A stretch of DNA of 64,000 bases, from contig CBDBFU010000023.1 of the NCBI GenBank assembly GCA_965205025.1, forward strand, positions 32,001-96,000. The letters run 5' to 3'. The number at the start of each line of letters is the position of its first letter. Position 1 is the first letter of the stretch. Of the stretch, positions 26,915-32,135 are shown in pieces. The notes below the pieces were generated by a model that saw nothing but the letters and a program-made list of their open reading frames with translations, searched no databases and had not been told where the DNA came from. The DNA comes from Candidatus Poribacteria bacterium. Lineage in GTDB: Bacteria; Poribacteria; WGA-4E; WGA-3G. Both the position numbers and the translations under genes were made by a program.

Positions 26915-27417
26915 TTATCGTCTTATTAATTTAACCAATACTTGTGCAATATTACCTTTATAACCACAGCGAGTTGTATTAATTGGATAATCTTCTCCTC
27001 GAAATGTAATTCTTGATTTTTTTAGCTTGTCTCGTTGTACTCTGTGTAAGCTACCTCCATGTACTAAATAGGTACAAGGTCTATTTCAACTGTATTTGGA
27101 GTGTAGTGGTCTGCAATTCTTGCTCCAGTCTGTAATTGAAGTACTGCTTCAGATGCATCAACATCACCTCGTTTTAATTCCAAAGGGACACCAATTAGAC
27201 AATTCTTCACATCATCAATATGAAATAAGATGAAATCACATTGGTTGCTTCTCGCTTTGTCTGTGGGATAAGCTTTATCTACATCTAATACTACACGGTT
27301 TACAGGTTTAGACCTTAGATTAGCCATTGAAACGGTACATCCTTTTCTGGTATAGGATTTTGCATTACTGTTACCTACCCATTTCTTTATCTGATTAAGT
27401 GTATCAATTGGATTCAC
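26915..27417 (-). CDS. Small PD-(D/E)xK-like protein coupled to the AAA ATPase (1-nt frameshift near 27066)
   Basis: CDFILF...PLELKRG...QLQ motif. Adding one base at CCTATTTAGTA continues LVHGGSLHRVQ... to TAA at 26915. The start overlaps the ATPase stop. Confidence 0.6.
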
Positions 27418-28864
27418 TACGACTCTTGCCTTTCTTTCTCTCATATCGTTGTTGAAGATTTACAGTACGGTTGTATAGTCCTTCAGCAACATCCTCATAA
27501 TCCTGTGGGGAGATACCTTCTATAGATTTAAATGGTATCTCTTTCACTGTTTCGTTCTTTTGAAAATGCCATACGCCTACTTCTTCAGGCACTAACCAAC
27601 AATCAGATTTATCCGAATTTTCATCAATTAATCCTTCAAGAACAAGGTTTCCTATTTCCTGGAGCAACCAATCACTATGTGTTGTTGTTATAACTCTAAC
27701 ACCAGCTCTAACAAGATATGCGAGTATCACAGCCATGTCTGCTTGTGCACCTGGATGAAGATGAGCTTCTGGTTCTTCTATGATTAGTGTATCTCCAGGA
27801 TTAAGAATTCCTCTAATAAATAAAACAACTGGAGCTAATTCAATCACCATCGATGATGATTGGCTTAACGGTATGTCTTTTTCACTCTCATTAAAGGTAT
27901 ACCGTACATCAGGATTGCCACTAACAGATGATTTTAACTGGATTTTACCTTGTAGTATCTTGTTTTCTAATATTCCAGCAATATAATGCATATCACTGTC
28001 AATATTTTTGTTTTCTTCATATAGAATTATCTTAGCCAAGAAATCCGTTAGAACACTTGACATCGTAGGTATATTAGATAATTCTTCGACACCTATACGT
28101 GTAGTATGTCTAACCATAGAACTTGCAATCACTCTGTGACTTTGCATTAGACCACTACGTGCGCCAGGAAGATAATATCGACAATGTTTTCTTCCTTCAA
28201 TAGTAATTTCTGACTTGCCTTCATGTTCTGGTAAGATGATGGTTATAGCATGATTCTTAGGGATTAAAACCTGTTCATCACTTGATGAATAGGTCAAATC
28301 CAAATCAGATTCATCTGAACCTAAAGAATGCATACTTATATTCCAATATATTTTATTGTCTGACTCAATTTTTAACGAGATTGACATAGGATTATGTTGT
28401 TTTTTTAACACTCGATTAAGATTTGAAATTGAATCTAAATCAAAGCAATTTATGAGTTCTTCTTGTAAAGTCTTTTTAAAGGAATCTATAGTAAAATAAT
28501 TGTGTATACTTTCATGCATACTTTTTGGAAGATCCGATAATAAAAATGATCTGTCAATCATTGCCATTTTCCGTTGGATAATGTGCTTTTCTTCTTTTAA
28601 CAAATCTTGACCATTTAATAATTCTCTCAGTAAAGGTTCAAGACTACTTGGTTCAGAATTATAGATTAGATTTGGACCTGTAAAGTCGTTAAATACTCCA
28701 TGCAGAACATACATCAAGGTGGCAAGATATGTTTTTCCAGTATTACTCGGACCAACAAACACAGTCAAGGGACGCAGATCAATGTTGGCTTCGTGAATTG
28801 GTCCAAAATTTTTGACTTCAATACCTATCTTCAATTCTTGACTGGAGTCTTCTTTCTTACTCAT
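27404..28864 (-). CDS. ABC-type AAA ATPase (AAA_15/AAA_21, AbiEii-like)
   Basis: KNFGPI..LRPLTVFVGPSNTGKT (Walker A), SQSSSMVIELAP signature, IIEEPEAHLHP, TTHS. Confidence 0.88.
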   Translation of the reverse strand: MSKKEDSSQELKIGIEVKNFGPIHEANIDLRPLTVFVGPSNTGKTYLATLMYVLHGVFNDFTGPNLIYNSEPSSLEPLLRELLNGQDLLKEEKHIIQRKMAMIDRSFLLSDLPKSMHESIHNYFTIDSFKKTLQEELINCFDLDSISNLNRVLKKQHNPMSISLKIESDNKIYWNISMHSLGSDESDLDLTYSSSDEQVLIPKNHAITIILPEHEGKSEITIEGRKHCRYYLPGARSGLMQSHRVIASSMVRHTTRIGVEELSNIPTMSSVLTDFLAKIILYEENKNIDSDMHYIAGILENKILQGKIQLKSSVSGNPDVRYTFNESEKDIPLSQSSSMVIELAPVVLFIRGILNPGDTLIIEEPEAHLHPGAQADMAVILAYLVRAGVRVITTTHSDWLLQEIGNLVLEGLIDENSDKSDCWLVPEEVGVWHFQKNETVKEIPFKSIEGISPQDYEDVAEGLYNRTVNLQQRYERKKGKSRSESN

Positions 28865-28927: not shown

Positions 28928-30298
28928 TTAAAAAAATGTAAGATACGGTTTGCCTTCTATCTCGCGGAGCAACAATAGTGCAAGTTCTCTTCCATGATAG
29001 TCTCCCCACATAGATGCCTCTCCACATGGTATTTTTCTATCTTCTGGAACATAGTCCCACCCGTTGGGTCTGTGATATACTGAATGAAGAAGTAAACCTT
29101 GATGTGTTTCTGAGGCTGATAAATAGGGTTCATCAAAGAGAGTGTTTGCTACTGTTAAACCAGCTTGGTAGTATTTGGAACTTGATTCTTCTTCACCATG
29201 TTTTGAAAGGAAGTTCCCATATCTAATTAACCCTTGTGCCGCGATTGCTGCAGCAGAACTATCAACGGGTTCATAATCATTGTATGGTTCGGACGGAATT
29301 GATAGGTAATCTCCTAATTCAACCAGACCCGGAGCCCCTGTATCCCAGTAAGGTATTCCATCCTGTGCTGTGTTCTCAATGAAGAAATCTGCAGTTGCTT
29401 CAACTGCTTTCCTCATATGGGATGTCACTTCGAACTTCCCACCAAAAGAATCAAGGTCATCATCAGACAATGTATCAAAAAACTCAAGCTGCTCTGCATA
29501 ACCTGTTATAATCCATGCTAAACCACGAGTCCAGGTAGAAAATGGGGAATAACCTTGTTGTGTACTGGGACATCGGTAATTTCCATCATTAGTATTGAAG
29601 ATAGATTCATGAACTACCCGTCCCCGAATATCAAAAGCATCACGACCTTCACCGTAGTAAACATTATACTTAGCAGTTGTTTGAGAATGTTGGATTAACC
29701 GTTCCAATAAGTTTATTGCTACATCACCTTCACCCATAAGGACAGCCCCAAGTGTATGTCCTATAGCTAATACACGTAATGAACGTATGGTATCTGAGAA
29801 TAAAGAATGTGGTCCGTTGAAAGAAGCAATATAACCTGCTCCATCCTTAATCTCTGTCCATCGACTCGCTTGTACGGCTGCTGAAGATTTCAAAGCAATT
29901 TCATAAAAGTGCATTTCATTTTCATCAGTTGGGATAACACCTTCCCGCATAAGTCGACAAAGATTACCATAAGTGGAGACGTTATTAAACCCGTGATCAT
30001 GTACGCCAATATGTGTAACATGTGGATGCATTTTTTCAATAGTGTTCCGTCTTCCAATTTCTAAGAATTGTTCATCCCCAGTTGCATCATATTGAAGAAT
30101 AGCAGATCCAAATTGAAATCCTTGCGTCCATTCTGTCCATCCTCTGGTTGTGTATGTACCAGCAACTGTAAAAACAGGTGTGCCATTTTCTGGTAGCCAA
30201 GTGTCTTCAATTGACAATATTTTTTCACCTGAAAACTCAAAAAACCTGTCTATTTTGGTTTTCAGATCATGTATCTTTAATGAATTGTTTATCTTCAT
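28928..30298 (-). CDS. Glycoside hydrolase family 88 (unsaturated glucuronyl hydrolase-like)
   Basis: WTQGF, HDHGF, QGY..STWTRGLAW, PYWD, DSSAAAIAAQGL, WGDY. Confidence 0.85.
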   Translation of the reverse strand: MKINNSLKIHDLKTKIDRFFEFSGEKILSIEDTWLPENGTPVFTVAGTYTTRGWTEWTQGFQFGSAILQYDATGDEQFLEIGRRNTIEKMHPHVTHIGVHDHGFNNVSTYGNLCRLMREGVIPTDENEMHFYEIALKSSAAVQASRWTEIKDGAGYIASFNGPHSLFSDTIRSLRVLAIGHTLGAVLMGEGDVAINLLERLIQHSQTTAKYNVYYGEGRDAFDIRGRVVHESIFNTNDGNYRCPSTQQGYSPFSTWTRGLAWIITGYAEQLEFFDTLSDDDLDSFGGKFEVTSHMRKAVEATADFFIENTAQDGIPYWDTGAPGLVELGDYLSIPSEPYNDYEPVDSSAAAIAAQGLIRYGNFLSKHGEEESSSKYYQAGLTVANTLFDEPYLSASETHQGLLLHSVYHRPNGWDYVPEDRKIPCGEASMWGDYHGRELALLLLREIEGKPYLTFF

Positions 30299-30829: not shown

Positions 30830-30977
30830 CTTTACTTTATAAGTACTTTTTAAAAATTGCTGTCAAAATTGTTGATGTTATATTCATACATTATTGCATA
30901 TTCACTATACTTTTGCTATAATAAACAAACACTAAAACAAAATCCATCCACATCATACAATTCCTTACGGTGTAAAA

Positions 30978-32135
30978 ATGAATAAGAAAAAGACATCCAT
31001 TCATCAATCGTTACCTATATGCATGCTTGGTGCTAATGGACATGGTAAGACTACGTTAACAACTGGTATGGAAAGAGTCGTTGAAAAAATTGGAACAATT
31101 CGTTCAGATACCAATACTGATTTTGCTGATCAGTTGCCAAATCACCACCAGATATGTGAAGGAGTTGGTTTTACTTTTCGATCTATTGACTATGAAACAA
31201 GCGGAAAACACTATACACAGATAGATTGTAATACACATCAGGATATAATAAAATTATTAGTTAGTGGTACTCTGGATATTCAAGGTGCAATATGGGTAGT
31301 CGATGCAGATGAAGGTGTAACGCCAGAATCTGAAGAACTGGTTTATATTGCCAATCGTGTTAAAGTATCCAATATTGTATCATTCTTAAATATTCATAAT
31401 ACCGATGACAGTGAGTTAGTAAATATCTGTCAACATGAAATGAGAGAATTACTCACTGAATGTGGATGGAATGAGAATAATTCACCAATATTAGTTGGTG
31501 ATGCACATAATACATTAAACTATAAAACTGTAAATTTGGGTTCAGACCAATGGAAACCTATCGTTGATACCATTTCTGCATTAAACAGCATAATGCCGGA
31601 TCCAATTGATAAATCACATCTTCATCTGGTTTTACCTATACATGAAATTGTGAAGGAAAGTAAAGAGACTGTGACATTTTCAGGTGAATTAATACAAGGT
31701 CATCTTTCTGTAGGTCAATCCATTGATATTGTTGGCAAAGGAGACAGGGTTAAAACAAAATGTTTAAATATTAAAGAAGATGAAATAACAGTAGAATCTG
31801 AACCAGACTGGTTATCTGTTGGACAGGTTGTATGTTCCCCAAAGACTATAAAAGCACATACAGAATTTATAGCTATTGTTTATTTACTAAGCCAGGAAGA
31901 AAGCGGAACACATATCCCTATAATTCAAAATGATAAGCTTGATATCCACCTATGGGGTATAGATGTTCATGCACGTGTTCAACTTCCACCAGAACTATCA
32001 ATCATATCTCCAGGATCAAATTGTGAGCTTTCTATTTACCTTGATCTTCCTCTTGTGATGGAAGTTGGTACAACATTCGAAATAAAAAAGATGGATCTGA
32101 GAATCGGTTTGGGAATCGTAACAGAAGTTACATAA
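30978..32135 (+). CDS. Highly divergent EF-Tu paralogue (three-domain architecture, degenerate G motifs)
   Basis: Colinear with EF-Tu: GANGHGKTTLT, YETSGKHYTQIDCNTH, GAIWVVDADEG, SFLN, EMRELL, TIKAHTEFIAIVYLLSQEESGTHIP, IGLGIVT. Confidence 0.8.
   Translation: MNKKKTSIHQSLPICMLGANGHGKTTLTTGMERVVEKIGTIRSDTNTDFADQLPNHHQICEGVGFTFRSIDYETSGKHYTQIDCNTHQDIIKLLVSGTLDIQGAIWVVDADEGVTPESEELVYIANRVKVSNIVSFLNIHNTDDSELVNICQHEMRELLTECGWNENNSPILVGDAHNTLNYKTVNLGSDQWKPIVDTISALNSIMPDPIDKSHLHLVLPIHEIVKESKETVTFSGELIQGHLSVGQSIDIVGKGDRVKTKCLNIKEDEITVESEPDWLSVGQVVCSPKTIKAHTEFIAIVYLLSQEESGTHIPIIQNDKLDIHLWGIDVHARVQLPPELSIISPGSNCELSIYLDLPLVMEVGTTFEIKKMDLRIGLGIVTEVT

Follow-up and report, generated by a model that had tools for sequence, protein, structure and literature searches.

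Why should a bacterium that carries a normal elongation factor EF-Tu also maintain a second EF-Tu-like gene in which most of the GTPase motifs are degenerate? The question is raised by an open reading frame (ORF) at positions 30978-32135 (+) in a stretch of 64,000 nucleotides of Candidatus Poribacteria DNA (hereafter the window), which is part of contig C23 of an assembly of 5.66 Mb (95 % complete). The ORF starts with ATG, is open to its stop codon and encodes a product of 385 amino acids (aa), referred to below as the paralogue. It is interpreted here, with a probability of roughly 60 %, as a pseudo-GTPase descended from EF-Tu that would serve as a binding module without switching. The label "probably a pseudo-GTPase" had already been proposed in a first-pass annotation of this DNA and appeared fair: the motifs seem incompatible with switching, and Walker A is lost altogether in relatives that are nevertheless under purifying selection.

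Colinearity of these 385 aa with EF-Tu through domains I to III, as initially claimed, was borne out by phmmer, in which residues 14-384 aligned with dozens of EF-Tu chains from PDB (E 2e-52 to 1e-43). Pfam domain models placed the protein in the translational GTPase superfamily, since GTP_EFTU (PF00009; 68.7 bits, cut-off 26.5, E 6.5e-19) and GTP_EFTU_D3 (PF03143; 44.7 bits, cut-off 27, E 1.8e-11) both matched above the gathering score. Scores remained under the cut-off for the EF-Tu equivalog TIGR00485 (195.3 bits, curated cut-off 522.4), for three PRK EF-Tu models of NCBIfam (201-205 bits, cut-offs 449-479) and for the SelB model TIGR00475 (43.9 bits, cut-off 242.25). The domain II model GTP_EFTU_D2 (PF03144) had no Pfam match in the window protein. 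Alignment with tuf of the same genome displayed 14 gap columns in this domain, between K266 and E267, in agreement with the shortened domain II noticed at first. Judging from this gap and from replaced pocket residues, a full EF-Tu domain II barrel with its aminoacyl pocket appears to be absent.

The motifs G1 (GANGHGKT), G3 (DCNTH) and G4 (NIHN) listed in the first-pass annotation were all read directly from the translation, and the frame was indeed intact. In G1 the GxxxxGKT pattern of Walker A was itself preserved, with canonical His19, Val20 and Asp21 all substituted. Loss of the switch I motif was equally evident, but not its proposed replacement by VGFTF: both HMMER and MAFFT paired R58-GITI-62 with E61-GVGF-65, and Thr66 lies two residues downstream of Gly64, the equivalent of Thr61, so that the motif is lost either way. 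The canonical G1-G5 remnants of the window's copy were limited to GxxxxGKT, Asp80, His84 and Asn135. The catalytic histidine, His84, was thus correctly described as kept in this copy, but the statement could not be extended to the whole family, as seen below. Coordinates of all these features are gathered in Table 1.

Related copies were encountered in several families of the phylum (family codes f1 to f11) and formed two subclades, f1-f4, to which the window's copy belongs, and f6/f7. A site table was drawn up for 33 paralogues and 20 canonical EF-Tu proteins, using E. coli tuf numbering. K24, T25, D80, N135, K89, H319 and P321 were kept in 33/33 paralogues, and D21, T61, G83, H66 and N273 were lost in 33/33. 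Main-chain contacts of the switch I threonine and the switch II glycine to the gamma-phosphate drive the GTPase switch; these residues, here Thr61 and Gly83, are reportedly the universal switch residues of Vetter and Wittinghofer. Going by these sites, residues required for switching or hydrolysis are lost throughout, together with NKxD in the window's copy and Walker A in four relatives.

Further losses were graded. Guanine is recognised by NKxD and SAL, and outside the f6/f7 subclade NKxD survived in one copy only, G064 from f4 genus g18 (NKAD). Within the f1-f4 subclade, the G4 sequence was thus NKAD in a single f4 genus; families f2 and f3 displayed NKxE or NQxE, and f1 displayed NTGG, NTDS, NPRN or NIHN. 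S173 was replaced by D in 21 of 22 members of this subclade. The f6/f7 subclade retained H19, NKxD, S173 and E215/D216/F218. In the window's subclade the residues H66, E215, D216, F218, T228 and N273 were replaced or deleted; those of domain II around N273 are taken here to form the aminoacyl pocket of EF-Tu. His84 was present in 28/33 paralogues overall and in 17/22 of the f1-f4 subclade, the other five displaying Gln, Pro or Tyr. The series ended with four copies from f4 genera g16 and g17 (G058-G061), which lacked GK[ST], DxxG and NKxD and were sister to the P-loop-bearing f4 copies of g18 (100/98).

Despite identities down to ~29 %, 28 positions were invariant over 37 copies. Of 214 positions invariant in canonical EF-Tu, only 33 persisted in 90 % or more of these paralogues: 0/11 in switch I, 4/11 in helix D (D142, E144, L145 and E152), 5/46 in domain II and 9/50 in domain III. 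Four residues were newly fixed (G15C, Y326D, R333W and E378K), the last three of them in domain III. At the site of the domain II deletion, low-complexity inserts of ~8 to 55 residues were observed in f3 locus L046 (G029) and in L033, L034, L045 and L047; that of G029 was Pro/Ser/Gly-rich, and G066 (L040) carried two extra inserts. Judged from these alignments, the site seems to behave as a tolerant surface loop.

Degenerate motifs could also be expected from a decaying, non-functional tuf duplicate or from an assembly or binning artefact, as could the unusual composition of the window's copy and the length of its terminal branch (0.46). This explanation was found extremely improbable and the pseudogene reading was rejected. 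No internal stop interrupted any of the 150 matches listed across 176 genomes, many of which are single-contig chromosomes. Ratios of nonsynonymous to synonymous substitutions (dN/dS) were computed with a Nei-Gojobori script, which left saturated pairs without value (8/15 in the main set, 3/6 in the P-loop-less set). The paralogue displayed 0.091-0.148 in the seven genome pairs, out of 15, whose dS was unsaturated. Over these pairs the values were similar for hisA (0.086-0.137) and for the cytidylyltransferase-like gene (0.077-0.212), and tuf displayed 0.011-0.065. P-loop-less copies gave 0.134-0.172 in the three of six pairs that could be estimated, two of these values being associated with a dS of 1.2-1.6, near saturation. 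The overall range (0.09-0.17) and the 28 invariant positions contradict decay, and the long, compositionally deviant branch goes together with the drop in G+C content of the window's lineage (36.6 % in this copy against 43-51 % in relatives). The same drop was visible more widely: G000, G096, G073 and G079 (L009-L012) had 35-37 % G+C, against 43-51 % elsewhere in the genus and order (L013, L029, L031, L041).

The protein is therefore under purifying selection, P-loop-less copies included. Since this holds for all forms, the selected function would be independent of nucleotide switching; and since switch, guanine-recognition, pocket and P-loop residues were lost under such selection, the conserved function is probably not GTP-dependent delivery of aminoacyl-tRNA (aa-tRNA).

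The paralogue is lineage-specific and almost exclusively found in Poribacteria. Among 5.8 billion proteins searched, 277 matched; the best 120 of these were 56-100 % identical and ~386 aa each, their named sources were all Candidatus Poribacteria, and their annotations were "hypothetical", "GTP-binding protein" or "elongation factor Tu". When 1.84 billion cluster representatives were scanned with HMMER, only two close ones emerged (48 % and 38 % identity), followed by ordinary EF-Tu at ~30 %. The representative with 38 % identity corresponded to the second, less degenerate subclade, whose 14 proteins come from two further families of this class, f6 and f7. Of the retrieved loci, 80 came from named genomes, each of them a metagenome-assembled genome of Candidatus Poribacteria. 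In Protein Atlas, only generic clusters of EF-Tu/EF-1-alpha were matched.

Within the phylum 176 genomes, not independent where related, were scanned, a best E below 1e-60 with the window protein being taken to denote an orthologue. Not counting the window's own genome, strong matches were present in 110 of 111 genomes of family f1, 11 of 11 of f2, 28 of 29 of f3 and three of seven of f4. A profile search added three f4 genomes, with the g17 copies, which raised the incidence to 155 of the 158 other genomes of the order; no copy was detected in G115 (86 % complete), G030 or G063 (85 % complete). Families f5 and f8-f11 yielded only canonical tuf or nothing with the queries used. It had been suggested at the outset that this is a maintained EF-Tu paralogue, and that a lack of orthologues or a dN/dS near 1 would instead indicate a decaying copy. 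Neither sign of decay was seen, and maintenance was supported by the normal tuf alongside, by orthologues across the order and by the dN/dS values. The f5 genomes G004-G006 (76-95 % complete) gave no EF-Tu-like match with the paralogue query. G005 gave none with the own-genome tuf or with profile A2 either, which is odd for an essential gene and may correspond to an assembly or binning gap.

Phylogeny, one of the checks initially proposed, was carried out with tuf and SelB and recovered one paralogue clade on the EF-Tu side. A quick tree of 72 rows, from which 18 of the 37 cluster representatives were left out, placed 33/33 paralogues in a single clade (Shimodaira-Hasegawa-like approximate likelihood ratio test 99). 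A careful maximum-likelihood tree of 47 rows (22/37 paralogues, 5/37 representatives, 10 named bacterial EF-Tu, nine Poribacteria tuf and one SelB) likewise united 22/22 paralogues (100/100). In both trees this clade joined bacterial EF-Tu and stood away from the outgroup, which was represented by one SelB row. The clade was split into the f6/f7 subclade and the f1-f4 subclade on a stem of ~1.0 changes per site, and its internal branching followed the family codes, as expected under vertical descent. The sequences of Poribacteria tuf did not come together in one clade, and the stem of the paralogue was long enough to raise long-branch warnings; it may plausibly have arisen by duplication of Poribacteria tuf.

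The other translation factors of the genome were present in their usual form or number. Canonical tuf, which exceeded the cut-off with 718 bits, was located downstream of fusA on contig C9; SelB, with 644 aa against the 385 aa of the window protein, was on contig C20. One tsf and one bL12 gene were detected and a duplicated partner was not found. No match to PF03465 (eRF1_3), presumably the family linked to Balon-like factors, was obtained in the own genome, PF03465 being a rough probe for such factors and the search not extending to other baeRF families. EF-Ts of this genome (L152 1198-1788, -) was a short form of ~197 aa, which TIGR00116 matched in two pieces, at positions 2-95 and 175-274 of 293.

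Structure prediction, likewise foreseen in the first-pass annotation, gave a confident fold resembling the open, GDP form of EF-Tu. The AlphaFold model of the window protein (predicted local distance difference test, pLDDT, 91; predicted template modelling score, pTM, 0.88) retained all three domains, with beta structure around switch I and a domain II of reduced size. In VIA-align it matched GDP-form EF-Tu with Z 41-46 and a root mean square deviation (rmsd) of 2.0-3.1 A over 350-380 residues, EF-Tu:EF-Ts complexes with Z ~34, and the GTP-analogue form 2c78 with Z 30.4 and an rmsd of 7.8 A. A P-loop-less copy was modelled with pLDDT 85.9 and pTM 0.84 and displayed the same order of secondary-structure elements. 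The GTPase fold is thus apparently retained, and the models fit a paralogue fixed in an open, GDP-like arrangement.

The following scheme is proposed. A single origin as EF-Tu paralogue would have preceded the split of the main Poribacteria orders and would have been followed by vertical inheritance beside the normal tuf. The role of GTP-driven aa-tRNA carrier would have been abandoned, leaving neither switching nor canonical elongation activity. Decay would have been stepwise, affecting the switch residues first, then guanine recognition (NKxD, SAL) and, in two genera, the P-loop; in domain II, the pocket for the amino acid would have been deleted or rewritten. What remains would be a three-domain EF-Tu body, held in one open GDP-like shape, which binds a partner. 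In copies such as that of the window, with GK[T], Asp80 and Asn135, a nucleotide or phosphate might persist as static cofactor, a possibility suggested by the strict conservation of Walker A, Asp80 and Asn135 among P-loop-bearing members.

Several points weigh against a non-switching module. Walker A, Asp80 and Asn135 were strictly kept in 33/37 members and the catalytic histidine was present in the window's copy, which may therefore have some nucleotide-dependent activity, for example with ATP. The open form proposed by AlphaFold may stem from a training bias toward GDP-form structures. In addition, no gene neighbour was conserved beyond family f1, where all neighbours were on the opposite strand.

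The first of these points leads to a different interpretation, namely a specialised, still active elongation-type NTPase, in the manner of SelB or of nematode mitochondrial EF-Tu variants, delivering an unusual aa-tRNA or a tRNA-like RNA and perhaps using ATP or another nucleotide in place of GTP in the P-loop-bearing members. Besides the conservation of Walker A, Asp80 and Asn135 (33/33 in the site table) and of His84 in 28/33, it would account for the retention of all three domains and for the invariance of K89, E315, H319 and P321 in 37/37 paralogues, which we take to be tRNA-contact positions of EF-Tu. Moreover, the NKxE or NQxE found at G4 in several f2 and f3 copies resembles NxxE, presumably the motif of the ATP-using YchF/Ola1. 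Such an enzyme was nonetheless considered unlikely: Thr61 and Gly83 were lost in 33/33, aminoacyl pocket residues were replaced or deleted in the window's subclade, His84 was itself substituted in 5/22, and purifying selection persisted in the four copies devoid of Walker A.

For the preferred pseudo-GTPase, candidate partners would be indicated by helix D, the best-kept ancestral surface and presumably the docking site of EF-Ts and bL12, secondarily by K89/E315/H319/P321, and by the newly fixed residues of domain III; these features would point to partners and prove none. The protein may also be a tRNA-binding regulator. In a bolder and rather improbable version, the protein would be a permanent look-alike of EF-Tu-GDP which docks on the ribosomal stalk, EF-Ts or tRNA and regulates translation without a nucleotide cycle. 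The kept helix D and the few tRNA-contact residues would then serve docking, for instance in ribosome parking or hibernation or in the titration of EF-Ts. Complex prediction with EF-Ts (197 aa) and the paralogue alignment gave a score of 0.01 with no controls run, and weighs neither for nor against a pairing.

Compared with bacterial EF-Tu (tuf; TIGR00485, PF00009/PF03144/PF03143), the paralogue displays the same three-domain fold and order (E ~1e-50) but degenerate G2, G3, G4 and G5, a short domain II and a location outside the str operon; its dN/dS was ~0.12, against ~0.02 for tuf of the same genomes. Like SelB, which is present in the same genome, it would be an EF-Tu paralogue recruited to a special task, but it lacks a C-terminal extension and the SelB row stood apart in the tree. 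EF-Tu is among the most conserved proteins known. It is very rare for a bacterial EF-Tu-like subfamily to stand apart: a survey from 2015 names a single one confined to one bacterial lineage, actEF-Tu (Atkinson 2015, PMC4342817). The Poribacteria paralogue resembles actEF-Tu and Streptomyces EF-Tu3-type copies in being a second, distinct EF-Tu-like subfamily of one bacterial lineage, and differs from them in the absence of switch residues and, in part, of the P-loop.

Archaeal MM1309, which is SelB/EF-Tu/aIF2-gamma-like, is reported to bind GTP and Cys-tRNA, nucleotide binding being kept. PseudoGTPases include eukaryotic Ski7, among the relatives of translational GTPases, and the N-terminal domain of AAGAB; these belong to eukaryotic or unrelated lineages, unlike the Poribacteria family with its graded series from NKxD-bearing to P-loop-less members. 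The concept of a GTPase fold that persists as a binding module once its G motifs are gone is that of PMC12490416. Neither a Poribacteria EF-Tu paralogue nor a bacterial EF-Tu pseudoGTPase was encountered in full-text literature, supplements aside (e.g. the Additional files of PMC4342817 listing subfamilies). The main lineages of a whole candidate phylum thus appear to keep a second EF-Tu body while its GTPase machinery is dismantled stepwise, a natural experiment in the passage from molecular switch to pseudo-enzyme. It suggests that the life of uncultured sponge symbionts involves a factor peculiar to this lineage, the partner of which could reveal a new regulation of translation or show the EF-Tu fold in a moonlighting role. 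Should the look-alike version be true, the series would lead step by step from a core translational GTPase to a nucleotide-free regulator.

It had also been suggested that the protein is a decoy for EF-Tu-targeting toxins, phage proteins or elfamycins; as such a decoy, or sponge, it might capture toxins like Doc, CdiA-CT or Tse6. The EF-Tu shape is kept in a GDP-like form, as in the Tse6 and CdiA complexes found among the structural matches, and a defence-like ATPase (PD-T4-4_A, AriA-like) is encoded ~2 kb upstream. This ATPase lies outside the synteny conserved in family f1, however, and a conserved placement in a defence island was not observed, neighbours varying between families and being metabolic genes. 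The near-universal, single-copy and vertical distribution of the paralogue, comparable to that of a core gene, is unlike that of patchy defence genes, and its own best PADLOC match reached only 18.7 bits (E 1.7e-4), short of membership in a defence family. G59-I60, T382, A375, G222 and G275, which are presumably the contact sites of Doc, Lit, kirromycin and GE2270A, were all changed; with 33/214 canonical-invariant positions surviving, little would be left for recognition by EF-Tu-specific toxins. The decoy proposal was consequently regarded as unsupported and very unlikely.

The paralogue was correctly placed outside any tuf or ribosomal operon in the first-pass annotation, true tuf being on another contig. 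Of its two flanking genes, the cytidylyltransferase-like one is divergent and hisA is convergent; since both are on the opposite strand, the paralogue is monocistronic. This gene order was conserved within family f1 only. Neighbours in f2-f4 included M20 peptidase, isochorismatase, NamZ, DUF3500, AccA, SNase and a sigma-54 activator, and as no neighbour was common across families, no partner can be deduced from gene context. The promoter-like region attributed to the gene was only weakly upheld: the intergenic region holding TGCTATAAT (148 nt, 25 % G+C) contains this one candidate seen by eye, but a consensus scan detected eight promoter-like sites against 11.5 +/- 4.1 in shuffles, hence no excess.

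Table 1. Features of the EF-Tu-like paralogue and its upstream region (positions in the window; residues of the window protein unless canonical)
Feature	Position	Strand	Basis
Candidate extended -10-like TGCTATAAT, 55 nt 5' of ATG	30914..30922	+	Read by eye
Coding sequence, EF-Tu-like paralogue, 385 aa + stop, monocistronic	30978..32135	+	Translation; neighbours on opposite strand
Domain I, G-domain-like, ~residues 1-205	30978..31592	+	Pfam GTP_EFTU residues 13-184; AlphaFold secondary structure
G1 / Walker A, residues 18-25 (GANGHGKT); GK[T] retained but not His19 or Asp21	31029..31052	+	Translation
Degenerate switch I E61-GVGFTF-67; Gly64 at the Mg-binding Thr61 position	31158..31178	+	HMMER and MAFFT alignments
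Degenerate G3 DCNTH, residues 83-87; Asp and His kept, DxxG glycine replaced by Thr	31224..31238	+	Translation; site table
Degenerate G4 NIHN, residues 138-141, instead of NKxD	31389..31400	+	Translation; alignments
Putative helix D equivalent, residues 145-161; best-retained canonical domain I surface	31410..31460	+	Model helix; conserved positions
G5 position, G-D-A (from G174) for G-S-A-L	31497..31505	+	Site table
Reduced domain II, ~residues 210-289; 14 residues missing at the K266/E267 junction	31605..31844	+	Alignments; model
Domain III, residues 290-385; family-specific fixed residues, e.g. Trp326 for canonical Arg333	31845..32132	+	Pfam GTP_EFTU_D3 residues 290-384

Two further genes upstream of the paralogue deserve mention. 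The defence-like ATPase (27404-28864, -) is a protein of 486 aa of the AAA_15/AAA_21 type, accompanied by a small ORF (27064-27444, -), and matched PD-T4-4_A (1e-33), AriA (7e-28) and OLD/GajA-type models in PADLOC. Between it and the paralogue, positions 28928-30298 (-) encode a protein of 456 aa with no Pfam or PADLOC match, which was found beside the cytidylyltransferase-like gene in six out of eight f1 loci.

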